Assembly (NCBI GenBank): GCA_034660835.1
Contig: JAYEKB010000113.1
Span: 1 to 43,526 of the forward strand
Reading direction: 5' to 3'
Length of the DNA: 43,526 nt
From: Thermodesulfobacteriota bacterium
GTDB lineage: Bacteria; Desulfobacterota; Desulfobulbia; Desulfobulbales; Desulfobulbaceae
Notes under the pieces: model-generated
Databases searched by the model: none
The model's input: only the letters and a program-made list of their open reading frames with translations
What the model was told of the DNA's origin: nothing
Shown here: one piece after another, positions 2,010-35,379 of the stretch
Numbering within the stretch: position 1 is the first letter of the stretch
How the letters are laid out: each line of letters opens with the position of its first letter
Position numbers and translations under genes: made by a program

Positions 2010-3751
2010 CGTGTGCCTACGTTATTGCAGTTTCTTTTTCAACATGCTGAATGCTGAAAACCTTGCGAGGACGGTCAATTACAAGTTTCTTCAACAGGGT
2101 TTTTGCCCCTTTGGGCAGCTCATTTAATTGGTAAAAACTATGACTCGGTGTAACAAATTCCGTGGCCTGAATTTTAGCAAGGATTGGCCTGATCCTTGAC
2201 CACGGTTTCCCGCATTTCAATTCCGCGACTCGTTCTATGAAAAGCGCCAGAACACATATCTTCACATGGGCCTCAATACGACGACCGAGCCAGTGATACA
2301 TCGGCATCATCTTGATCTGAGTACGTTTGAGCGAACGAAAACAGCGTTCAATAACCATCAGGCTCCGGTAACCATAGGCTGCGTCTTCAACGGTCAGTTT
2401 GTCGTCATTAGTCTCCAGAACCCATTTGCCATCATACCTGGCAGCTGTCTTGATTGCCTTGCGATCAATTCGAACTGTGCCTTTATCAGTGATGGTGAGA
2501 TACCGTTTATATCTTCGAGAAGCCAACAGGGCAATGGCCCATTTTTTTGTCGCACTCTTATCCTTGTGCTTTTTCAATTCTTCTTCAAGCATAATAACGA
2601 TATTTTTCCGGTGGGTGGTCTGCCGTCTTGCCTCCCCGGGGTTATAGCAGATGATATATCGTTTCCCGTTCTTCAGGATAACCTCTTTGGCACGCAGGTT
2701 GTCAGACAATTTCCTGTAACGGCCAGGTTGGGAAAGGACCGTCTCTTTTATTTCCTTTACGCTTGCCATTCTGGTGGCAAGCAGGTACTTGCCACAGGCC
2801 TTGGCCAACTCCTTACGATTAACCTTGGAATTCATGCCCGAGTCAGCAACAAACAGAGCCCTGCCAAGATTCCAGCCTCGAAGATCTTTTTTGATTATTT
2901 CAATGGTGCTGACATCAGTGGTATTACCCGGGAATACCCAGCTTTTCACCGGGATTCCTTCTCTGGTTACCGCCAGGGCCACAACAACCTGTGGTGCCCA
3001 CATGCCCTCTTTGGCATGACCATACTGCCGAAGACCGCCTTCCTCTTCATCCTCATAATCAACGGCAAACGAGGCAGTGGTGGTATCGTAGAAAATAATA
3101 TCAACAGACAGATTCAGCAGGTTGGCAACCTGGAAAAATATCTCCCGTTCCACCTCCTCAGCATGATCATGGAAAATATCCATGGCCTCGTACATGTGCC
3201 GCAACTCAAGATCATTACATTCCGGCAGATAAACAGTCTCCAGCCATCTGCCCCATACTCCAAGCTTCGATTCCGGGCTGCAGAGTCGGTTGGCGACCAT
3301 GGCCAGCAAGGCTTTCTCATAAGGTACCTGCTTTTTCTTTGCCAGCTCCCTGAATGTTTTACCGATGCCGTATTGTTCCCACAGTTTCTCGATAGCCCTG
3401 ACCGTGCCGAATTCAACAGTTCGCTTGATCCGGACGTTTTTTGGCAGACCGCCTTGATGGTCATCATCATCCAATGGATCAATAACCTTTACACCACAGA
3501 CCCGGGCGATGGATCGGCACAGTCGGACCAAGGCCTCACGGTCAAGTTGATCGGCTCTGCCAAAGCTGTGGATAATCCTGGCCGTGGATTTCCCGCTGGT
3601 CGGATGCCGTTCATTATGGGCCAGCTGGTAATATTTGGTTACCGAGCCGTCCTTGTTCTTTCTTTGAGTAGTTCGCAAGTACATGATTGCCCATCATGTT
3701 AAATGCAGAGCCATACTATGTCAAGAATAAATAGCACAAACGTGTGCCTAC
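2010..3751 (-). mobile_element. IS1634-family insertion sequence (ends not resolved; range bounded by an 11-bp direct repeat CGTGTGCCTAC)
   Basis: A single long transposase ORF is flanked by identical 11-mers at 2010-2020 and 3741-3751. I could not find convincing terminal inverted repeats by eye. Confidence 0.55.
2017..3684 (-). CDS. IS1634-family (IS4-like DDE) transposase
   Basis: This 555-aa ORF has the N-terminus 'MYLRTTQRKNKDGSVTKYYQLAHNERHP..' characteristic of IS1634-family transposases. DDE-region motifs are present ('IIFYDTTT', 'FVADSGMNS', 'YRSLMVIERCFRSLK'). Confidence 0.9.
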   Translation of the reverse strand: MYLRTTQRKNKDGSVTKYYQLAHNERHPTSGKSTARIIHSFGRADQLDREALVRLCRSIARVCGVKVIDPLDDDDHQGGLPKNVRIKRTVEFGTVRAIEKLWEQYGIGKTFRELAKKKQVPYEKALLAMVANRLCSPESKLGVWGRWLETVYLPECNDLELRHMYEAMDIFHDHAEEVEREIFFQVANLLNLSVDIIFYDTTTASFAVDYEDEEEGGLRQYGHAKEGMWAPQVVVALAVTREGIPVKSWVFPGNTTDVSTIEIIKKDLRGWNLGRALFVADSGMNSKVNRKELAKACGKYLLATRMASVKEIKETVLSQPGRYRKLSDNLRAKEVILKNGKRYIICYNPGEARRQTTHRKNIVIMLEEELKKHKDKSATKKWAIALLASRRYKRYLTITDKGTVRIDRKAIKTAARYDGKWVLETNDDKLTVEDAAYGYRSLMVIERCFRSLKRTQIKMMPMYHWLGRRIEAHVKICVLALFIERVAELKCGKPWSRIRPILAKIQATEFVTPSHSFYQLNELPKGAKTLLKKLVIDRPRKVFSIQHVEKETAIT

Positions 3752-5343: not shown

Positions 5344-6292
5344 CCAGCTTCCTTATAAAATATCTTTTCCCTTCATACTCCGTTTCAAGAAGTTGATTTT
5401 GATTTACCAAGTTACGGATAAGAGACCAGTCCTTCCCGGCCCTGTTCAAGAATTTCCGTACAGCCTCTTCCCGCATCGGATGCACGGAAACAATGCTTAG
5501 CAGGTCGTTTTCCACGTCTCCTGTCAAAGAAAATGCATTGCCTTCGTAGCCGAATAAACACTCAACATTTTCAAGATGCTCGCTGACAATTTGATAGGCT
5601 GCGGTCAAGGCCTCTTCACCGGGAGGAAGAACCCATTTTTCCGCGGGCGGTCTGGTGGGAATAGACAGGTACGCTATGGCTGGCCTGAGCTGAGAGAGAA
5701 AACCGGCTATCTCTTTAACGTGGGCAACGCTGTCGTTTACATTCCTGACAAGCATGGTTTCCGTAACCAGTTTTCCCGGATATTCACGGGAAAACTGAAG
5801 CATCCCTTTCAGAATGACAGACAACTTCAGATCGTGATGAGGACGATTAACCCTCCGCCAGATATTTCTGTCTACGGCGTCTACCTTAAGAGAGACCCAA
5901 TCCGCTTTCAGCAAATCCTTTCTGACATCATCCCGCCAGATCAAAGAAGCATTTGTAATCACACCCGTCTTAATACCAAGAGGGCGCAATAGATCGATTT
6001 CATCTCCAAGATGAATATCCAGTGAAGGTTCTCCATCGGGGACAAAGGCGAGATAATCAATGGATTCTCCCCTTTCTCTGGTCTTGTTGACTTTCTTCTC
6101 TACTTCCTCCACAATCATTTCCGGCCTGTAAAATTCCCGACGTGTAAGATCCATTTTGTCGGTTCGGCCGATTTGACAATAAATACAGGAAAAGGTGCAA
6201 TTTTTAGGCGGAATATTATTAACGCCAAGGCTGCGTCCTAAACGTCTGGAGGGGACAGGCCCGAAGGCAATCATGTCTTTTCTTATTTTCAT
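5324..6292 (-). CDS. radical SAM protein (COG0731-like)
   Basis: 'GPVPSRRLGRSLGVNNIPPKNCTFSCIYCQ' contains the CxxxCxxC radical SAM cluster motif. The preceding GPVxSRRLG box is typical of this subfamily. Confidence 0.85.
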   Translation of the reverse strand: MKIRKDMIAFGPVPSRRLGRSLGVNNIPPKNCTFSCIYCQIGRTDKMDLTRREFYRPEMIVEEVEKKVNKTRERGESIDYLAFVPDGEPSLDIHLGDEIDLLRPLGIKTGVITNASLIWRDDVRKDLLKADWVSLKVDAVDRNIWRRVNRPHHDLKLSVILKGMLQFSREYPGKLVTETMLVRNVNDSVAHVKEIAGFLSQLRPAIAYLSIPTRPPAEKWVLPPGEEALTAAYQIVSEHLENVECLFGYEGNAFSLTGDVENDLLSIVSVHPMREEAVRKFLNRAGKDWSLIRNLVNQNQLLETEYEGKRYFIRKLDEQETK

Positions 6293-7704: not shown

Positions 7705-8415
<711 letters not shown>

Positions 8416-15134: not shown

Positions 15135-16295
15135 ATGACAATGAACCGGGCATCATTCTTCAATAAATCCTGTACCGTTACATACTTGTTTTATTCTTTT
15201 GGAATGTTGACCTGGCTTAAAAATCAAAAAGAGCAGATCATAAGCCCGGTTCTTGACTGGGTCCAGATCGAGGTGTCCACCCGCTGCAATGCAACCTGTA
15301 TTTACTGCCCTCACACCTTGGCAAGTAAAAGTTGGCAAAGTTCCCATTTTCCGTTGACGTTCTTTTATGACCTGCTCCCTTCGCTTGGTCATACCAAACT
15401 GGTATTCCTGCAGGGATGGGGGGAACCACTTCTTCACCCGGAACTCTTTGAAATGGTGCGGCTCTGTAAAAACCGAAACAAAATGGTCGGCTTTACTACC
15501 AACGGCATGTTGCTTAATAAGAAGACTATCCATGTCATTGTTGATCTCCAGGTGGATATCCTGGGAATCAGTTTCGCCGGCACCACTTCCTCCACTCATA
15601 ATCGAATTCGAAAAGGAACGGATTTTGACACCGTAGTGATGGCTCTTGACTATCTGCGGCGTATCAAGGCTGAAAGGAGAACCACAAAACCAGCCGTTCA
15701 TCTCGCCTATCTCATGCTCGCCTCCAACTTTGAAGAACTCAGCGGGATTCCCCGCCTGGCCGAAAAAGTGGGAGCAGAGCAGGTAGTGGCCAGCAACCTT
15801 ACCATGATCCTCGATCCGCAGTTATCTCGGGAAGCACTCTTTAATAATCCACAGCGGCTCGACGAGTATAACCGAACATTGGCAAGGATAAAAAAAGAAG
15901 CCGCCGGACAAAGAAAAAGAATTCTGTTTGAATATCAGGGTCCCGGTCTTGATAAAAGTTCCTTTTCCTGTCCTGAAAATGTCTGTCGGGCATGTGTTAT
16001 CAACGTGGCCGGTGAGGTAGGTCCTTGTGTTTTCACCAATACGATTTTGTCGGGAAGCTCCAGCAAAACAGCAACAAAAAAAATTATGCCCATTTTCAAA
16101 AACCGGCCAATCCCCCTTGAAACCTTCTCTTTCGGCAACATCAAAAACAACAGCCTTACTAGGATCTGGCAGAGTAAAAAGTACAGGGAGTTCAGAAATA
16201 TCTTTGATCCTGACACCAAATTATCTGCAAGGCAGATTTCGGCAGAAATGCCTACCTCCTGCCGTACCTGCTACAAACGAATGTTATCCTCCTGA
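15135..16295 (+). CDS. radical SAM/SPASM-domain protein
   Basis: 'VSTRCNATCIYCPH' is the CxxxCxxC motif. The C-terminal auxiliary-cluster region is 'CPENVCRACVINVAGEVGPCVF..FGNIKNNSLTRIW..CRTCYK' (SPASM pattern). The start is uncertain (15135 or 15204). Confidence 0.85.
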   Translation: MTMNRASFFNKSCTVTYLFYSFGMLTWLKNQKEQIISPVLDWVQIEVSTRCNATCIYCPHTLASKSWQSSHFPLTFFYDLLPSLGHTKLVFLQGWGEPLLHPELFEMVRLCKNRNKMVGFTTNGMLLNKKTIHVIVDLQVDILGISFAGTTSSTHNRIRKGTDFDTVVMALDYLRRIKAERRTTKPAVHLAYLMLASNFEELSGIPRLAEKVGAEQVVASNLTMILDPQLSREALFNNPQRLDEYNRTLARIKKEAAGQRKRILFEYQGPGLDKSSFSCPENVCRACVINVAGEVGPCVFTNTILSGSSSKTATKKIMPIFKNRPIPLETFSFGNIKNNSLTRIWQSKKYREFRNIFDPDTKLSARQISAEMPTSCRTCYKRMLSS

Positions 16296-28481: not shown

Positions 28482-28520
28482 AAAAAAAGCCGAACTACCT
28501 TTCTCCAAGGCAGCCCGGCT
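28482..28520 (-). terminator. candidate rho-independent terminator (strand-specific)
   Basis: The minus-strand RNA AGCCGGGCUGCC-UUGGAGAAA-GGUAGUUCGGCU forms a 12-bp stem (3 G-U pairs) followed by U7. On the plus strand the G-U pairs would become A-C mismatches. Confidence 0.55.
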
Positions 28521-28596
28521 ATCTAACAGACCCGTGACTTTCCGTCCCTGTCTTGCGGCAGGTTTGGCTTTGTCTTATTTCCAGATGAAAATTACT

Positions 28597-29000
28597 CTAT
28601 AGAAAATTATATATGAATGGCGGGTTAAAAATCAAGGGAACAGCGTGGCACTGACTGAAAGTAAATGGCCGCTCCGTTAAAGTCATTGCGGCACTAATAC
28701 TTTTACGAAGAAGAATTTCACGGAAGAGTAGAGCGCTGAAAAGTCCGGTATTATCACTTTTCATCCGGAAGTACCAGACCTTTGCGAGAGCTGGGTGTGA
28801 GTTCCGGTTTTCCAGTCTCCGCTGATCCGGCATTTACTCCAGATCAAAATATGTCGTTCCAGGTTCATCGCCAAACAATCTTGCCAGGAGGTTCTTTCCA
28901 CCTTGCCGTGGAATAATCAAGGATACAACCGGTGCTCGATGGTGCCATCATCAAGTTCCCTTCTCAGTTTTTTATGTACTGCCAACTCTGCGATAAACAT
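28597..29000 (-). pseudogene. decayed AAA ATPase (COG1373/AAA_14-DUF4143-like) N-terminal remnant
   Basis: Frame-hopping translation gives 'MFIAELAVHKKLRRELDDGTIEHRLYP*', then 'IIPRQGGKNLLARLFGDEPGTTYFDLE*MPDQRRLENRNSHPALA..'. The second stretch resembles the GPRQVGKTTL P-loop and YFDLE/DP box of that family. The P-loop is degenerate, and there are an in-frame stop and a frameshift. Confidence 0.35.
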
Positions 29001-29037
29001 TGAAATCTCGGAAAACTAATTCGAGATTTCAATGTTT
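28995..29037. repeat. perfect 16-bp inverted repeat with 11-nt spacer
   Basis: AAACATTGAAATCTCG (28995-29010), spacer gaaaactaatt, then CGAGATTTCAATGTTT (29022-29037). The two arms are exact reverse complements. Confidence 0.95.
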
Positions 29038-29348
29038 AGGAGATTGTTGAAAATAGTCCATTGGAGAATTATTCGACGGATTGAAGTGCATTTTGTCAAA
29101 TGCTTAGCTGAAATGTCAAATTGCGTTCTTTGATTTTTCTTCCACCGCCACGTCTGAATGTAAGCCCTGTCGTATGTTACGAGAAATACAGATTCATAGT
29201 ACGAGTTATACGCCTGGGCGTGTATAATTTCGGTTTGAAGAACAATGGACAGCTCTCTAAATACGGCTCCCAAGTCATCCCTCCTGAAAAAAGATTATAG
29301 GACGGCCATAACTCCACTGTTTCAATAAAGGAAAAGGATGGTAAATCC

Positions 29349-30086
29349 ATGCAGAAAATCATATCCCTCTTTACCGGAAAATATGGATTAACCAGAAATG
29401 AAGTCATTGTAGAGATAGAAAAGGTTTTCTCAGACATACTCTCTGGGTGGTACCGCTTTGAGGTAATGGTCGTTTTTCATCAGGATCTCCAGTTGGAAGC
29501 TGTAGCGTATAACAAGATTGGTGGTGTGCTCCTGCAAAGGAGCATTGATCTTAAAAAAATACGAGGCTGGAATTCTATCAGAAAACATCTGGAAAAGAGT
29601 CTGCTGAAGGCCTCCGTTCTCAAACAGACCCAGCAGTATAAATACTATGAGAGGGAACTACGTTGGGGAGAGATCACGACCATTGATGCCGGGCAAAACT
29701 ATCATATTGAGATCGAGGTAATTCCTGGCGAGATGATGACAGCGTTTTGCCCCCTTAATCGTGTTGGTCTCCATGAACGTAATTCTGATAACTTTTCCAT
29801 TGGCATGAAAAGAGCTTTTCATGTTCGCAGAGTTGATCCGGTTTTCCTGAACGGTACACCTCGCCTAAAGGTGGTGGTAGATCGGGTGTCCAAAACGCTT
29901 GTTGAGACCCTCCTGAAAGAACAACTTGGATATTTTGCCGAAAAAATGACAATTCGCTGCACAAAGCGATATGTGGGACAGAAGAGTTTTGTTATTACTT
30001 CCAGGCGGATTCCGAAGTCTGCAATTGTCGCTGTGACAAGGGAACTGAACGAGAAAATGCAAGTCAGGTTTGACCGGAATTTATGA
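29349..30086 (+). CDS. NusA-like protein (NTD + S1 + single KH-like region; lacks KH2 and C-terminal repeats)
   Basis: The order of segments is collinear with NusA. 'LTRNEVIVEIEKVFSDIL' aligns with NusA 'LPREKIFEALESALATA'. 'GEITTIDAGQNYHIEIEVIPGEMMTAFCPLNRVGLHERNSDNFSIGMKRAFHVRRV' aligns with the S1 region '[37 protein letters not shown]'. 'RVSKTLVETLLKEQL' aligns with 'RSKPEMLIELFRIEV'. This alignment is from recall and was not computed. Confidence 0.65.
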   Translation: MQKIISLFTGKYGLTRNEVIVEIEKVFSDILSGWYRFEVMVVFHQDLQLEAVAYNKIGGVLLQRSIDLKKIRGWNSIRKHLEKSLLKASVLKQTQQYKYYERELRWGEITTIDAGQNYHIEIEVIPGEMMTAFCPLNRVGLHERNSDNFSIGMKRAFHVRRVDPVFLNGTPRLKVVVDRVSKTLVETLLKEQLGYFAEKMTIRCTKRYVGQKSFVITSRRIPKSAIVAVTRELNEKMQVRFDRNL

Positions 30087-31456
30087 ACCTCTGGAAATGG
30101 AAAAGGAAAAAACAAAAAATTGAAAAAGAATGGACGCATATCGGCACTGGCGTTCACCTTGATCATCCAGAAACCATTATGGAGCTGGAATTTCCTGACA
30201 GTTACCGTAAAGGGCACTTCTGGTGCTTCGGGACTACCCGAGTGGGGAAAACCCGGATCATGGAACACATCATCGAGCAGGATATCCGCAAGGGATATTC
30301 GGTGGTGGCCATGGACCCAAAGGGCGATATTGATCTGTTTTCAAAAATCACTGAAGTGGCCGAAAAAACAGGCCGCCTCCAAGATTTAATGCTGATAACT
30401 CCGATTTTCCCACAATACAGTGCTATCCTTGATCCCCTTTCCTCCTATTACATGCCCGAAGAACTGGTGGCCCATATTACCGCCGGAGTTGCCGTGGGCA
30501 GGGAGCCGTATTTTTTCAGCGTTGCCTACGAAGTCAGCTTGGTCGTAGTTCAGGCACTGATTATTCTGGACGGGGGGAACCGTACTACTCCGTCGTTCAA
30601 CCTCAACGATATAAAAAACCATATCAGTCATCAGGATTTGGAACAGCTCAAAGATCGGCTTGATTATATTGACCATCCCGAGGCGGAGCAGCTTTGCAGG
30701 GATATGCAGAAGATCCTCTCCACTCCGCCGGATTATTACTCCAAAGTGGCCAGCTCGCTTCGGGTTGCGCTCACCGAATTGACTTCCGGCAATGTCGGCC
30801 AGATTATCGGTAAGGCGGATGAAAACAGATTTATAAAACGGCTGGAACAGGGCAAGGGAATTATTCTGGTAGTGCAGCTTGGTTCGCTCCTTACCAAGCG
30901 GGCTGCCTATACCGCAGGCAAGGTAATCATCTCCATGATCCAGGCCTTTGTCGGTCGGGTCTATTCCAGTGGTAAAAACGTTACTCCTTCTCTGGTACTG
31001 CATATAGATGAAGCACAATCAGTTCTCTACCACGGCATTGAGGATTTATTTGCCAAGGCAGGTGGGGCCGGGGTTTTCATCCATGGTTACTGCCAATCCA
31101 TCAGCCAGCTATATACCGAGGTCGGGGAAGATCGTGCTAATAGCATTCTGGATAACTGTAACACCAAACTTTTCATGCGGGTGCCGGATGCAAACACGGC
31201 ATCCTATGTTTCCAGGCATCTTGGTGAGGAACGTCGATTCTCGCCGATTATCTCGGTGGGAGGTGGTCTGTCCATTCGTGAGACCGAGGAAGTTAGGATC
31301 AAGCACACCGAGGTGCTGAACATGGCACCTCGGGAACTGTTTTTAAGTACTTACTCCGGCACCTATAAAGGAAAGACTGCAACCGTCCTGGATGGGGATC
31401 TGAAGGTGGAATTTCCTGATCTTGCCGGGGAAACCATGGGAGGAGCGAGCCCATGA
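30083..31456 (+). CDS. T4CP/TraD/VirD4-superfamily P-loop ATPase without N-terminal membrane anchor
   Basis: Walker A is 'HFWCFGTTRVGKTR', followed by 'VVAMDPKGD'. Walker B is 'LVLHIDEAQSV'. The TraG-D_C-like block is 'GVFIHGYCQSISQLYTEVGEDRANSILDNCNTKLFMRVPDANTASYVSRHLGE'. There is an ATGA overlap with the upstream gene. Confidence 0.8.
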   Translation: MNLWKWKRKKQKIEKEWTHIGTGVHLDHPETIMELEFPDSYRKGHFWCFGTTRVGKTRIMEHIIEQDIRKGYSVVAMDPKGDIDLFSKITEVAEKTGRLQDLMLITPIFPQYSAILDPLSSYYMPEELVAHITAGVAVGREPYFFSVAYEVSLVVVQALIILDGGNRTTPSFNLNDIKNHISHQDLEQLKDRLDYIDHPEAEQLCRDMQKILSTPPDYYSKVASSLRVALTELTSGNVGQIIGKADENRFIKRLEQGKGIILVVQLGSLLTKRAAYTAGKVIISMIQAFVGRVYSSGKNVTPSLVLHIDEAQSVLYHGIEDLFAKAGGAGVFIHGYCQSISQLYTEVGEDRANSILDNCNTKLFMRVPDANTASYVSRHLGEERRFSPIISVGGGLSIRETEEVRIKHTEVLNMAPRELFLSTYSGTYKGKTATVLDGDLKVEFPDLAGETMGGASP

Positions 31457-31482
31457 CTCTTTTTTTAGCTTTTCCCTGATTG

Positions 31483-32919
31483 ATGTTCGGGCTTGAAATG
31501 TTATTAAAAGCAGCAGACCTGCGCAGTGGCATGTTGTGGCTGGCGATTGTGCTGGTACTGGTTGTTGTAGCTGTGTTGATCTTTGGCAGGAAAAAACAAG
31601 AAGAAGTCGTCATTATCAGGCAGATTTCTCTGAAAGACCTCTCAGCGGTATGGGAAAAGAAAGGTGCCAGAACAATTCATATATCGAAACTCTCTCCCTT
31701 GTGGCGGGATGAAAAGATACTTGCCAGGGAAGATGAATATCCTGAGCTGCAAAACCTACGGGCAGCTGCTTTCATGGAAAAGATTCGACAATGGTCATGG
31801 TTTAATAAATTCCCGCAACAGAAGGTGATATGCGGACAGATTTTGAAATTGCTCGACCAGGAAGGGCATTGCCCCTCGGTTGTCGATATTCAAGGAGATG
31901 TCGAAGGGAGCTGGGATGAAAATACCTACCAGCTTCTTGCCGGAACAACCCTGCTTGATCATTCGCTTAATGTGGCGGAACAGGTGGTGCAGTTGCTTTC
32001 CGACGACAAGGCCTGTCATGTCATCCCCGATACCATGATAGCAGCCCTTGCCCATGACCTGGGGAAACTTGAATCCATGCGGGGCTATCTCTACTCTCTG
32101 GGTGAGCATCCACTTGCTGCCGGACGACCGTTGGCCGGAATTCCAGGATTTAAGGAACTACGCAGGAAAGATGAAATCCTGCAGGCGATCAAGCTGCATC
32201 ACAAGAGGCCACAGGGGTTGCTTGGTAAAACCCTGAAAAAGGCGGATCAAAAGGCTCGGCAGATGGAGCTGGAAGATGCTGCCCTGAAAATTGATACATC
32301 TGAAGCAAATCCGGTTGAGGACATAAAGCCTGTACCAGGTAAAGAGAAACAGGGAACAAAAAGCACTGCTGCCTGGAAGGCCCAGGAAGACATCTACAAT
32401 GAAACTGGGGGAGAGGGCCGGAAAAAATCACAGATGGAAAAACCACAGTTGATGGATATCTCCGGCTGGTTTGATGCAGAAAAATTTCTGGATGAGCTGA
32501 AACCATACATAAACAAGATGTTTGGCCGTCGATTCATGGCCTTTTCCATGTCGGACGGCCATGTCTATTTCCAAGCCAAGGTTCTTGAAGAGGTTGCCCG
32601 TAAGCAAGCGGAACAGGCAGGGAACATGGAAATTGCCACCATGGGCCAGAGAGATGAATCCATGCGCAGTGTGCTCCTTAGCATTGTCAATCATCTCCGG
32701 GCAGATCATGAGGTTATTGCCCGAGGATTGATTAAGGATAACTTTTTCGGGGGCTATTTCAATGTGACACGGAAAATCGGCAAACCCATCAAGGGATATT
32801 ATACACCGTTTCATGCTGAAGCTTTCGGATCCATTGCAGAGATGGAACAGAATAAACCAAAAATGCTACGTGATATTGTCAAGGTCAGCCCATATCTGGA
32901 CAACAATGCGGATACGTAA
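31483..32919 (+). CDS. membrane-anchored HD-domain protein
   Basis: The N-terminal TM segment is 'MLWLAIVLVLVVVAVLIF'. The HD signature is 'LLDHSLNVAEQ..IAALAHDLGKL..LGEHPLAAG..AIKLHHKRP'. The C-terminal half is long and charged. Confidence 0.75.
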   Translation: MFGLEMLLKAADLRSGMLWLAIVLVLVVVAVLIFGRKKQEEVVIIRQISLKDLSAVWEKKGARTIHISKLSPLWRDEKILAREDEYPELQNLRAAAFMEKIRQWSWFNKFPQQKVICGQILKLLDQEGHCPSVVDIQGDVEGSWDENTYQLLAGTTLLDHSLNVAEQVVQLLSDDKACHVIPDTMIAALAHDLGKLESMRGYLYSLGEHPLAAGRPLAGIPGFKELRRKDEILQAIKLHHKRPQGLLGKTLKKADQKARQMELEDAALKIDTSEANPVEDIKPVPGKEKQGTKSTAAWKAQEDIYNETGGEGRKKSQMEKPQLMDISGWFDAEKFLDELKPYINKMFGRRFMAFSMSDGHVYFQAKVLEEVARKQAEQAGNMEIATMGQRDESMRSVLLSIVNHLRADHEVIARGLIKDNFFGGYFNVTRKIGKPIKGYYTPFHAEAFGSIAEMEQNKPKMLRDIVKVSPYLDNNADT

Positions 32920-33635
32920 TGGCTAAAGAATGGGAAAACAGAGGGCAGAGCGATACCAATGCTCAGATCATCACCACTGATTCCGGCAGGATCTACAGGC
33001 CGAGAAATTTGCTCAATGCCATTTCAGAGGTCCAGCAGTTTTTTGTAATCGAAAGTAAAGGGCAGGATATCCCAGGTGAATTCCTTACGCTGGAACATAC
33101 TCTGGATTTTTTCAAGATCGGGATAAAGAGTGGCTTTCATGAAGGCTTTGCCCTGGTGCTGTTGTTTCCGGTTTTCCATTTTTATCTCTTCCCCTTTGTT
33201 TTTCAGAAGCTTGATTTTGTCAGTCATATCCTGTTCGGATCTATCCCCTACCTTGTTCTGATGGTCAATACAGCCATGTGCTGCTATATCAGTCGCTACT
33301 ATGTGGGCAATATCACCAGAAAGGCAATCAACTCTTTGCTCATGGGCCGGGCCATGTCTCTGCTGCTCAAGGCCTTTCTCCTGTATGTGCTCTATCTGGT
33401 GCTTTATCGACTCAGCACACCGGAGAATATTTGGAAACTTGCCATGCAGTTCGGGTCAAGGGCGGAGGAAATATATAATGGGTTCTTTGAGATAAAACCG
33501 CATCTGATGCCTGTGGCCACTGAAAGCTCTGTTCTTATGGTGGTGGCGGCAATTTTTCCATACGGTTCGGTTTATCTGCTGGACCTGTGGCGGAGGTACA
33601 GGATCAAGAGGAATGCAAAAATTATTTCTGCATAA
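32919..33635 (+). CDS. polytopic membrane protein, unknown family
   Basis: Its start overlaps the upstream stop by 1 nt (TAATG). Four to five hydrophobic helices are present, for example 'FALVLLFPVFHFYLFPFVF', 'IPYLVLMVNTAMCCYI', 'LLLKAFLLYVLYLVLY' and 'VLMVVAAIFPYGSVYLL'. Confidence 0.65.
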   Translation: MAKEWENRGQSDTNAQIITTDSGRIYRPRNLLNAISEVQQFFVIESKGQDIPGEFLTLEHTLDFFKIGIKSGFHEGFALVLLFPVFHFYLFPFVFQKLDFVSHILFGSIPYLVLMVNTAMCCYISRYYVGNITRKAINSLLMGRAMSLLLKAFLLYVLYLVLYRLSTPENIWKLAMQFGSRAEEIYNGFFEIKPHLMPVATESSVLMVVAAIFPYGSVYLLDLWRRYRIKRNAKIISA

Positions 33636-33687
33636 TCTGCAGGGCTGGCCATTAGGTGCTGGTAATTTAATAAAAATGGGAGAAAAA

Positions 33688-34053
33688 ATGACGGACACAA
33701 ACGAAAAGGAGAAAAAAAGACCTTCATGGCAGGAAATACAGGAAAAAAAGATCAGCATGGCCAAGGAACGTGGAGCACGGGTATTAAAAGTCAATTCACC
33801 CCTTGGCTCAACCATGTTCAACATCCTGCGCCAGTTTGATATGGCCTATACCCATTTCAAGGCAAGACTCGGAGAAATGGATGGGATCTCACACGAGGAA
33901 GGTGAAGAACTGATGGCAGAGGGAAGAGAGATCATCATAGCCTTTTCCAACTATACTGCCAGGCTCAGTAAAAAAATACGCTTCCGATACTATACTCCCC
34001 GGGAGATCAGCGAGTTTATGAAAACCTCCCAGGATGACGATACGGTAAATTAG
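33688..34053 (+). CDS. small charged hypothetical protein (121 aa)
   Basis: GGGAG lies upstream of ATG 33688; ATG 33676 is an alternative start. The gene is convergent with the integrase, with an 8-nt gap. I recognise no family. Confidence 0.5.
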   Translation: MTDTNEKEKKRPSWQEIQEKKISMAKERGARVLKVNSPLGSTMFNILRQFDMAYTHFKARLGEMDGISHEEGEELMAEGREIIIAFSNYTARLSKKIRFRYYTPREISEFMKTSQDDDTVN

Positions 34054-34061
34054 ACTTCCTC

Positions 34062-35111
34062 CTATAGCCCAAGGCTAGCTATGCGGTCGACAGCCTTTAA
34101 TTTATGGTCATCAAGGAGGTGTGTGTAACGCATGGTCATGGATATTGTTTTATGCCCCAGTATATCGGCCACTGTCCGTAAATCGACTCCATTCATAATC
34201 ATGTAGCTCGCGGCGGTATGCCTCAAATCGTGCATATGGAAGTCTTCGATTCTGGCCCTTTTGACTGCCGCTTCAAAGCTTTCCCGGAAATATTGGTTCG
34301 GTCGCCGTCGGTAAGTCATTTTAGGTTGCCTGGGTAAAAAAACGAAATCCTTGCATTTGTAACCTCTTTCCAGGACAAGCTCGGATAATATTTCAATAGC
34401 CGAGACGGTCAACGGTACCCGGCGCGGATCCGTCTTGGTCTGTTGCAGATCAATGATTCTTCCATCAAAATCAACCTGTCCCCAGGTCAACCCAGCTCCT
34501 TCACTCGGACGCATCCCGGTATGAAGCTGTAGCACAATAAAATGGTACAGATTTGGCCGATGGCCCTTTTTGCTCTCTTTAAGCAAACTCTTGATTTCAG
34601 CATCGGTTAAAAAACGCAACCTCCCCTGCGGTGTTTTCGGTTTGCGAATAATGGCCACAGGATTGGTCGCCTCAATTCCCCACTCACGAAGTGCAGTGCT
34701 ATAAATATGGGAAAGCATACTGAGATCTTTGATGACCGTCGCCGGTTGAACTTTTGCCAACCGCGTATCACGAAACTGGGCAGCCAAAGTTGGAGTAATC
34801 TCTTTCAGGGTTTTACCGAAAAAATAGTGAAGGGATCGAGACTGGTACAATTCCCGCCGATGGGTCGACTTTGCCTTTTTGCTTGAGACCTCTGCCAGAT
34901 ATTTTTCCAAAGCATCATCAAACAGCATATCGTTTGACGGTGCGTTACCAATATACCCGTCATTGCGAAGGGCAGCCTCTGTATCCTCGGCCCATCGTTG
35001 GGCTTCAGACTTACGATCAAATGTCTGTGATAACCTGGGATGACCTTTGACCCGAACCTCTGCCCGATAAACAGCTCCCCTCTTCCTTTTTACAGCTCTT
35101 ACAGTTGCCAT
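34062..35111 (-). CDS. tyrosine recombinase / phage-type integrase
   Basis: The N-terminal arm-binding-like region is 'YRAEVRVKGHPRLSQTFDRKSEAQRWAED'. Catalytic motifs are 'LHTGMRPSEGAGLTW', 'HDLRHTAASYM', 'LGHKTISMTMRYTHL' (R..HxxR..Y). I prefer ATG 35111; the listed 35117 is GTG. Confidence 0.92.
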   Translation of the reverse strand: MATVRAVKRKRGAVYRAEVRVKGHPRLSQTFDRKSEAQRWAEDTEAALRNDGYIGNAPSNDMLFDDALEKYLAEVSSKKAKSTHRRELYQSRSLHYFFGKTLKEITPTLAAQFRDTRLAKVQPATVIKDLSMLSHIYSTALREWGIEATNPVAIIRKPKTPQGRLRFLTDAEIKSLLKESKKGHRPNLYHFIVLQLHTGMRPSEGAGLTWGQVDFDGRIIDLQQTKTDPRRVPLTVSAIEILSELVLERGYKCKDFVFLPRQPKMTYRRRPNQYFRESFEAAVKRARIEDFHMHDLRHTAASYMIMNGVDLRTVADILGHKTISMTMRYTHLLDDHKLKAVDRIASLGL

Positions 35112-35151
35112 ACCCACACACTCCGAAAAGGATAGTGTGCCCTTGACCTTT

Positions 35152-35175: not shown

Positions 35176-35241
35176 TTTTTCGTAATTTATGCAATTCAGT
35201 GCTAATCTGTGGCAACTATAGCTCATCCGAGCCATAAAAGC

Positions 35242-35280
35242 AAAAAAGCCCTGAACCGTAGTATTACTGCGATTCAGGGC
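35242..35280 (-). terminator. rho-independent terminator immediately downstream of tRNA-Leu
   Basis: On the minus strand, GCCCTGAA-17 nt loop-TTCAGGGC is followed by TTTTTTG. It begins 12 nt after the tRNA CCA end. Confidence 0.6.
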
Positions 35281-35291
35281 TCTATTATAGA

Positions 35292-35379
35292 TGGTGCCGA
35301 AGGCGAGATTCGAACTCGCACGACCGTGGGCCACTACCCCCTCAAGATAGCGTGTCTACCAGTTCCACCACTTCGGCAC
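35292..35379 (-). tRNA. tRNA-Leu (anticodon GAG), class II with long variable arm, CCA encoded
   Basis: The minus strand reads GTGCCGAAGTGGTGGAACTGGTAGACACGCTATCTTGAGGGGGTAGTGGCCCACGGTCGTGCGAGTTCGAATCTCGCCTTCGGCACCA. The acceptor 7 bp pair. The anticodon stem is CTATC/GGTAG with loop TTGAGGG. The T-loop GTTCGAATC is present. Confidence 0.9.

Follow-up and report, generated by a model that had tools for sequence, protein, structure and literature searches.

Gene content of the locus

We analyzed a 43,526-nucleotide stretch (contig JAYEKB010000113.1, positions 1 to 43,526; the whole stretch is called the window here) from a Thermodesulfobacteriota bacterium of the family Desulfobulbaceae (assembly GCA_034660835.1), focusing on a gene for a 245-residue protein that resembles the transcription factor NusA. 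This NusA-like gene is the first of five co-directional genes in a 4.7-kb operon, and the five genes together with an integrase at a tRNA-Leu gene form a compact island of ~6 kb, in line with the first-pass annotation, which had placed the gene at the head of a mobile cassette. The NusA-like gene and the two genes that follow it, encoding a coupling ATPase and a protein with an HD domain, are referred to below as the trio:

29349 to 30086, + strand: gene for the NusA-like protein, 245 aa, ATG to TGA (open reading frame list)
29349 to 29648, + strand: reduced N-terminal domain (NTD) of the NusA-like protein, residues 1-100 (secondary structure of the AlphaFold2 model)
29649 to 29888, + strand: S1/OB domain, residues 101-180 (secondary structure of the AlphaFold2 model)
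29889 to 30083, + strand: KH1-like domain without a GXXG loop, residues 181-245 (model; GXXG gap from the hhalign alignment)
30083 to 31456, + strand: 457-aa coupling ATPase of the TraD/VirD4 type, lacking membrane helices at the N terminus (Pfam, NCBIfam, hydropathy)
31480 to 32919, + strand: 479-aa HD-domain protein with a membrane anchor, a candidate relaxase (MOBH-like) or nuclease (Pfam HD, hydropathy)

To judge by its conservation, the NusA-like open reading frame is a real gene, since a word-indexed search recovered 321 homologues, nearly all of 244-248 aa and all unnamed or annotated as 'hypothetical', and an exhaustive phmmer scan of a 50%-identity cluster library returned 167 representatives. 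Fused or longer forms were not found, which is weak evidence. The distribution was patchy and often multi-copy, with the gene present in 43 of the 301 genomes of the order. Within the family, the most conserved positions were located in the S1 and KH-like domains (G107, C134, E143, R144, G152, F157, R179, C204, R207, G210, P222, and E235), and the NTD was more variable.

Homology to NusA

Ordinary annotation tools miss the resemblance to NusA, because family models, phmmer, and BLASTP were all negative. Specifically, the protein had zero matches in Pfam, NCBIfam, PADLOC, and PHROG, a phmmer search against PDB sequences found nothing, and BLASTP against the host's own NusA gave an E-value of 0.23, which is not significant. 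The Pfam domains NusA_N, S1, and KH_5, to which the first-pass annotation had looked for confirmation, also failed to match at E ≤ 1.

A profile built from 83 diverse members of the family (A1) was far more sensitive. Searched against the chains of solved structures, it retrieved NusA (4mtn, 1.5e-10; 1k0r, 2.5e-9; 1hh2, 6.3e-7; E. coli NusA, 1.6e-5) and no non-NusA match below 1e-3. Alignment of A1 to the 493-aa NusA of the host using hhalign gave a probability of 97.3% (E 2.4e-11), with columns 3-247 placed against NusA residues 6-281. When run over 401 genomes of the phylum, the profile retrieved ordinary nusA in more than 100 of them, at 1e-6 to 1e-12, the open frames in question being mostly 400-570 aa in length.

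The structural comparisons led to the same family. The AlphaFold2 model (pLDDT 96.3, pTM 0.85) had NusA as all of its best 21 matches in Foldseek, and in VIA-align it was superposed on 4mtn with a Z of 16.4 (223 residues, 4.4 Å) and covered residues 5-283 of E. coli NusA. The portion containing S1 and KH1 (model residues 96-245) overlaid M. tuberculosis NusA (2atw_A) at 2.0 Å over 140 residues, with a Z of 15.0, whereas generic S1 proteins reached a Z of at most 10.2. The protein and NusA thus share a collinear NTD-S1-KH1 fold, alongside signature positions located after the S1 domain, namely the SR..L..L and R..G motifs and the E of the GE(R/K)I motif. On these profile and model comparisons, we regard the 245-residue protein as a true, very distant, and shortened derivative of NusA. 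The extent proposed in the first-pass annotation, an NTD, an S1 domain, and one KH domain with a stop before KH2, was recovered by profile, hhalign, and structural alignments alike, and the similarity it had assumed proved significant at the level of both profile (E 1.5e-10) and structure (Z 16.4).

The bona fide nusA of the host is a different gene. It encodes 493 aa, passes the NusA_N, S1, and KH_5 models, and adjoins rimP on contig C407, that is, elsewhere in the genome, as had been predicted from its absence here.

Departures from NusA

The NusA-like protein ends at residue 245, which aligned to NusA 281-283, the end of KH1, so that, unlike NusA, it has neither KH2 nor the acidic repeats. 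Its modeled NTD contains helices alpha1, alpha2, and a long alpha4, as well as three strands, and is ~30 residues shorter at the NusA 'head' in the hhalign alignment. In NusA, the head binds the C-terminal domain of the RNA polymerase alpha subunit (alpha-CTD), while alpha1, alpha2, and alpha4 form the pocket for the beta flap-tip helix (PMC5842316). The question raised by the first-pass annotation, whether contacts to the beta flap are retained, received a divided answer: the three helices are kept, and at the counterparts of R104 and K111, two residues critical for pausing (R107 and K114 in the host NusA), only 40-46% of the family have K or R. The start of the alpha4-equivalent helix is generally basic.

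The KH1-like domain has a 12-residue gap in the hhalign alignment, by which helix alpha1 and the GXXG loop are gone, and a conserved (I/L)-P-(K/R) is found instead. Charge also separates the two proteins, the isoelectric point being 9.85 for the NusA-like protein (family median 9.5) versus 4.36 for the host NusA and 4.75 for the first 281 residues of the latter. C134 in the S1 domain and C204 in the KH-like domain, each at least 90% conserved and specific to the NusA-like family, correspond to hydrophobic residues in NusA; they might be paired in a disulfide, belong to a metal site, or serve as a contact point. Finally, nusA belongs to a rimP-nusA-infB operon, whereas the NusA-like gene resides on plasmids, integrative and conjugative elements (ICEs), and islands, coupled to a gene for a type IV coupling protein (T4CP).

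The coupling ATPase

The start of the ATPase gene overlaps the stop of the NusA-like gene as ATGA (30083-30086). Its product matched Pfam TraG-D_C (2e-16), TrwB_AAD_bind, and T4SS-DNA_transf, and its best NCBIfam match was SXT_TraD (9.8e-51, below the cut-off). No N-terminal hydrophobic segment was detected, the single above-threshold stretch being internal (residues 143-165); Walker A lies at about residues 50-57, and orthologues are equally long. With 70-89% identity between loci, the ATPase is the most conserved gene product of the cassette, in comparison with 39-70% for the NusA-like protein. This anchorless ATPase is the sole TraG-D_C protein on two plasmids that carry F-type genes, pPRO1 of Pelobacter propionicus and the plasmid of Desulfosarcina BuS5, and is for this reason presumably their coupling protein.

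The HD protein

The HD protein comprises a transmembrane helix (about residues 14-35), an HD domain (90-275), a disordered segment (276-320), and a C-terminal alpha/beta domain (325-475), in a model with a pLDDT of 76.7. Pfam HD was matched by 16 of 16 family members, and the family has a complete HD metal site, with H161, H192-D193-x-x-K196, H210, H240-H241, and D256 invariant; the HD-x-x-K motif is likewise present in gonococcal TraI. Y205 is invariant as well. Among known structures, the HD domain aligned with the nuclease YhaM (Z 14.5), while a profile search against PDB sequences returned nothing and Foldseek returned generic HD hydrolases only.

MOBH-family TraI proteins are described as having a membrane helix at the N terminus, a relaxase domain that contains HD, a disordered linker, and a C-terminal domain, and as clustering with TraD and a small inner-membrane protein in F-type (MPF_F) systems (PMC6736028, PMC4207684). 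Both the layout and the neighborhood of the HD protein match this description, by analogy with which it is a candidate member of the family.

At one locus (L039:9062-12379, + strand, on contig C131 of genome G180, identical in position to L122), the ATPase and HD genes are joined in one stop-free open frame of 1105 aa, with TraH located 5 kb upstream. Either a natural fusion or an artefact in assembling this metagenome-assembled genome may account for it.

Conservation of the trio and its F-type context

Of 20 Desulfobulbales loci examined, 17 kept all five genes in order and three were cut at a contig end or truncated; these 20 loci carry differing integrases. Through the ATPase, we found 80 loci in species-representative genomes, nearly all from named Desulfobulbales (Desulfobulbus, Desulfopila, Desulforhopalus, Desulfocapsa, and Desulfogranum), for which 72 had enough upstream and 70 enough downstream DNA to be counted. 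The NusA-like gene was directly upstream of the ATPase in 71 of the 72, and the HD gene was downstream in 64 of the 70. The order NusA-like, ATPase, HD was also kept in four other families of the phylum, at 27-29% identity.

Two unrelated loci (L123:5303-7944 and L031:7326-8393) have radical SAM/SPASM genes directly upstream of the NusA-like gene, and a further one is present in the window at 15135-16295, 13 kb from the NusA-like gene. These neighbors may be coincidental or cargo.

The trio resides in F-type conjugative elements. In the distant chromosomal copies (L123-L126), it is followed directly by TraF (8e-55) and TraH (1e-78); the single TraH of each of these genomes lies within ~5 kb of the trio, and TraC is on the same contig in two of the four. 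On pPRO1, the gene order is lytic transglycosylase, a 242-aa 'hypothetical' protein that is NusA-like (hhalign to A1, 99.9%), an ATPase annotated with a 'TraM recognition domain', HD, TraF, and TraH. Plasmid pIAE1 of Trichlorobacter lovleyi has a comparable arrangement of SSB, lytic transglycosylase, NusA-like protein (hhalign 99.9%), ATPase, and HD. A Campylobacter upsaliensis plasmid has TraU, TrbC, a UvrD-like helicase, a helix-turn-helix protein, a 221-aa NusA-like protein (hhalign 96.9%), a 269-aa open reading frame that remained unmatched, the ATPase, and an HD protein (hhalign 99.1% to the HD family). In the Desulfosarcina BuS5 plasmid, the ATPase and HD genes are located among TraN, TraU, TrbC, and TraF.

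MOB-suite typed NC_008607 (pPRO1), NZ_CP058410 (pIAE1), NZ_CP087953, and NZ_OU701460 all as 'non-mobilizable', that is, as having no known relaxase, and there was no TraI_2 match on any of the four. Annotated genes for F-type transfer are present on three of them. On these four plasmids, the HD protein encoded beside the coupling ATPase is the obvious candidate for the missing relaxase.

Across the order, TraH was present in 32 of the 43 genomes with a NusA-like gene versus 12 of the 258 without, counts that come from related, non-independent genomes and describe an association, not a statistical test.

The island in the window

Beyond the trio, the island and its borders comprise the following:

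29274 to 29303, + strand: motif upstream of the NusA-like gene, consisting, in this order, of GTCATCCC, GAAAAAAG, and TAGGA (conserved in many element copies)
32919 to 33635, + strand: polytopic membrane protein, 238 aa, with ~4 hydrophobic segments (hydropathy; syntenic; no Pfam, NCBIfam, PADLOC, or PHROG match)
33613 to 34053, + strand: final cassette gene, for a small soluble protein of 146 aa (synteny, hydropathy; no family match)
34062 to 35117, - strand: tyrosine integrase (PHROG 1 integrase, 1.6e-80)
35292 to 35377, - strand: tRNA-Leu(GAG), the integration target adjoining the integrase (tRNA prediction)

The motif at 29274-29303 lies 45-75 nt before the ATG of the NusA-like gene and is widely conserved among element copies. 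It was not flagged by a sigma-70 scan, and promoter and terminator scans in general did not exceed the shuffled background; the motif could be a promoter, an operator, or part of an origin of transfer (oriT). Homology between element copies stops ~300 nt upstream of the ATG, and on the other side synteny within the genus resumes at about 35232-35242. A 17-bp perfect inverted repeat with an 11-nt spacer (28994-29038), ~310 nt upstream of the NusA-like gene and near the end of the element homology, was considered as a shared oriT and rejected, as it was not conserved in 20 other copies.

No mating-pore genes are present on the island. Leftward of it are a molybdenum oxidoreductase pair, S-adenosylhomocysteine (AdoHcy) hydrolase, HSP20, adenylate kinase, uracil-DNA glycosylase (UDG), a hybrid-cluster protein, and other housekeeping genes. 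That the island represents the end of a large ICE was rejected both for the window and for a copy in the closed genome G094 (L031), given that the neighbors are housekeeping genes; in the latter they are found on both sides, and the only TraH is 1.3 Mb away. In several other genomes, TraH is 35-60 kb off on the same contig, and some NusA-like copies may therefore be ICE-borne. The genome under study has a single ATPase and a single HD protein of this kind, and TraH on three other short contigs (C187, C214, and C225).

We also noted several features in and around the element copies. On contig C384 (L140, genome G000), a second NusA-like copy is represented by a fragment corresponding to residues 1-55 (69% identity; 5770-5934, - strand), which is head-to-head with an intact AAA_14/DUF4143 ATPase gene (L140:6151-7407, + strand). 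In the window, what the first-pass annotation had called a decayed AAA-ATPase fragment (28597-29000) faces the intact NusA-like gene, and the two arrangements suggest rearrangement between two element copies. In genome G689, of the same genus, the 3' part of tRNA-Leu and ~50 nt downstream of it (window 35242-35350) are duplicated ~2.2 kb apart (contig C225:5918-6135 and 8108-8215), which looks like att sites around another small insert at the same tRNA.

Two further features of the window lie outside the island. A c-di-GMP-I-GGC riboswitch aptamer (28505-28577, - strand; 72 bits, E 2.9e-15) is located upstream of an operon for a molybdenum/tungsten oxidoreductase with a Tat signal, and similar sequences recur on many contigs of the genus. 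A DDE transposase gene (DDE_Tnp_1, 2.4e-10; 2017-3684, - strand) is present among housekeeping genes.

Potential role of the NusA-like protein

We propose, at a probability of roughly one half, that the NusA-like protein, an ancient, shortened NusA derivative, has been recruited as a constant subunit of a module that processes and couples DNA in conjugation. The core of this module would consist of the NusA-like protein, the anchorless TraD-type coupling ATPase, and the membrane-anchored HD protein with its MOBH-relaxase layout, and would belong to a lineage of F-type plasmids and ICEs in Thermodesulfobacteriota and Campylobacterota. Through its basic S1/OB and KH-like surface, the NusA-like protein might bind single-stranded nucleic acid (a hairpin at oriT, or the transfer strand after nicking) and hand it over, at the membrane, to the hexameric ATPase and the HD nuclease, with the HD protein acting as the putative nickase. 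Because it has no mating-pore genes, the island in the window would be an integrative mobilizable element that borrows an F-type pore encoded elsewhere in the cell. The first-pass annotation had considered an accessory factor binding RNA or single-stranded DNA; of its two suggestions this one fits best, given the tight linkage to the coupling ATPase and the HD protein in F-type clusters, with binding predicted.

Several observations weigh against this proposal, in addition to the non-independence of the genomes in the TraH comparison. A true transmembrane helix is unusual for a relaxase. KH domains hold nucleic acid via the GXXG loop, which the KH1-like domain of the NusA-like protein does not have, such that binding would depend on the S1 domain and on charge. 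In all 16 HD-family members, Pfam TraI_2 and TraI_2_C were unmatched at E ≤ 1, and the conserved columns of the family contained no HHH-type motif of the kind defined as the 'alternative 3H' motif of MOBH relaxases (PMC6736028). Moreover, 3kq5, a TraI_2-type structure (PMC6736028), spanned both domains of the HD protein only weakly (Z 8.9, rmsd 13.9). At the level of the element, no convincing att direct repeat of the tRNA 3' region was found on the left side, the best candidate being a 9-bp match (28938-28946 and 35290-35298), and a conserved oriT hairpin was not found. The Desulfosarcina BuS5 plasmid has the ATPase and HD genes and no recognizable NusA-like gene, and the NusA-like protein is therefore not indispensable everywhere.

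A stronger form of the proposal, which we put forward tentatively and consider somewhat short of even odds, is that the trio constitutes an unrecognized DNA-processing system of F-type conjugative elements, with a NusA-derived protein as an adaptor of the relaxosome or of the coupling protein and the membrane-anchored HD protein as a new relaxase family. In a bolder variant, the NusA-like protein would still dock on RNA polymerase and so couple transcription through oriT to nicking and transfer.

Docking on RNA polymerase is also the core of the foremost rival explanation, in which the protein is an element-encoded transcription factor whose NTD would contact the beta flap tip and which would modulate pausing or termination when element or host genes are transcribed, making it the operon-specific NusA counterpart of the specialized NusG paralogues. 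True homology to NusA, including the alpha1, alpha2, and alpha4 helices that form the flap-tip pocket in NusA (PMC5842316), the generally basic start of the alpha4-equivalent helix, and the place of the gene on plasmids, where it heads the transfer operon behind the lytic transglycosylase gene, are all consistent with such a factor. We nevertheless consider it unlikely. The alpha-CTD-binding head is ~30 residues shorter, the R104 and K111 equivalents (40-46% K/R) are not conserved, and the protein has no KH2, no acidic repeats, and no GXXG loop in KH1. Furthermore, the isoelectric point is 9.9, compared to 4.4 for NusA, and the linkage is to the ATPase and HD genes and not to pore operons. The gene is kept in five-gene islands where, within a 4.7-kb operon, processive antitermination would have little to do. 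The short head, the lack of conservation at R104/K111, the basic character, and the five-gene islands likewise do not support the idea in the first-pass annotation that the protein mimics or competes with host NusA at RNA polymerase, and we find such a mimic less likely than a nucleic-acid-binding accessory.

More doubtful still is a role in defence or exclusion, in which an FtsK/HerA-like ATPase would power the HD nuclease, with the NusA-like protein as a sensor of foreign nucleic acid. Compact integrase islands at tRNA genes are in the manner of defence islands, and the patchy, multi-copy distribution is compatible with this idea, as are weak PADLOC matches that link the ATPase with mad8 (8e-13) and the HD protein with Cas3-HD (4.8e-5) and an Atlas neighbor with Cas3_HD at 0.90, the last being a lead only. 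However, the best family matches of the ATPase are conjugative TraD proteins, the trio is located in tra clusters between lytic transglycosylase and TraF/TraH, it supplies the sole coupling-type ATPase on two F-type plasmids, and its association with TraH is strong. Additionally, the phage genomes searched had no match, and the ATPase was seen at the end of a single IMG/VR contig, the only such contig.

It is very improbable that the island is a decayed ICE-end remnant without present function, its NusA-like gene kept only through recent decay, as might be read from the missing att repeat, the ATPase fragment left of the cassette that the first-pass annotation called decayed, and the truncated copies L033 and C384, since the five open reading frames and the integrase are intact both here and in 17 of 20 loci, the products have kept their length at identities of 39-89%, which indicates long-term purifying selection, and the same compact element is found at different chromosomal sites with different integrases.

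Comparison with known systems

A close counterpart is the MOBH module of GGI-type (gonococcal genetic island) and SXT-type MPF_F systems, TraI(MOBH)-TraD-Yaa/s043. As in the trio, a TraD-family ATPase adjoins an HD-domain protein, in which a membrane element at the N terminus is combined with a disordered linker and a C-terminal domain, and a small membrane protein, F-type pore genes, and a lytic transglycosylase are common to both. The systems differ in that the ATPase described here has no membrane domain, the gene order is different, and the HD protein is without a TraI_2 match or HHH motif and has a true transmembrane helix where MOBH TraI has an amphipathic helix. To our knowledge, no NusA-derived accessory protein has been reported for any MOBH system. 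The accessory gene that heads the module in GGI-like systems is yaf or FlhC-like (PMC4207684), the place taken here by the NusA-like gene.

Similarities also extend to integrative mobilizable elements that have their own relaxase and T4CP, which share the integrase at a tRNA gene, the T4CP, and a nuclease candidate, and which likewise have no pore genes on the island, with F-type pore genes elsewhere in the genome. Unlike those elements, the island yielded no att repeats or oriT, and its relaxase candidate is outside the recognized MOB families.

With respect to the NusA-like protein itself, possible parallels are offered by TraM/TraY of F, TrwA of R388, and MobI of SXT and IncC, which are small element-specific proteins encoded beside relaxase and T4CP genes, as here. 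These are expected to bind oriT DNA and bridge to the coupling protein, and by analogy the same might be expected of the NusA-like protein. In terms of structure, they have ribbon-helix-helix or other small DNA-binding folds, and the S1/KH/NusA-NTD architecture is absent from all of them. Our literature searches on NusA-like proteins in connection with conjugation, coupling proteins, or mobile elements found no paper, in agreement with the statement in the first-pass annotation that no role had been described for such a protein beside a T4CP-like ATPase. A NusA-fold accessory of a conjugative processing and coupling module would thus be unprecedented.

Implications for NusA evolution and plasmid mobility

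As a transcription factor, NusA is considered universal and single-copy. The presence of a diverged, mobile NusA paralogue in conjugation modules widens the known use of the NusA fold, and if the trio is indeed a DNA-processing system, it would be the first case of that fold working outside transcription. The same condition would explain why MPF_F plasmids of the pPRO1 type are typed as 'non-mobilizable'. For hundreds of Thermodesulfobacteriota 'hypothetical proteins', as well as the members on pPRO1 and pIAE1, our results provide a name and a testable role. More broadly, the trio marks a transfer module that current typing tools miss, and because four plasmids were typed as non-mobilizable, three of them with annotated genes for F-type transfer, the mobility of plasmids in these anaerobes and some Campylobacterota is probably underestimated.

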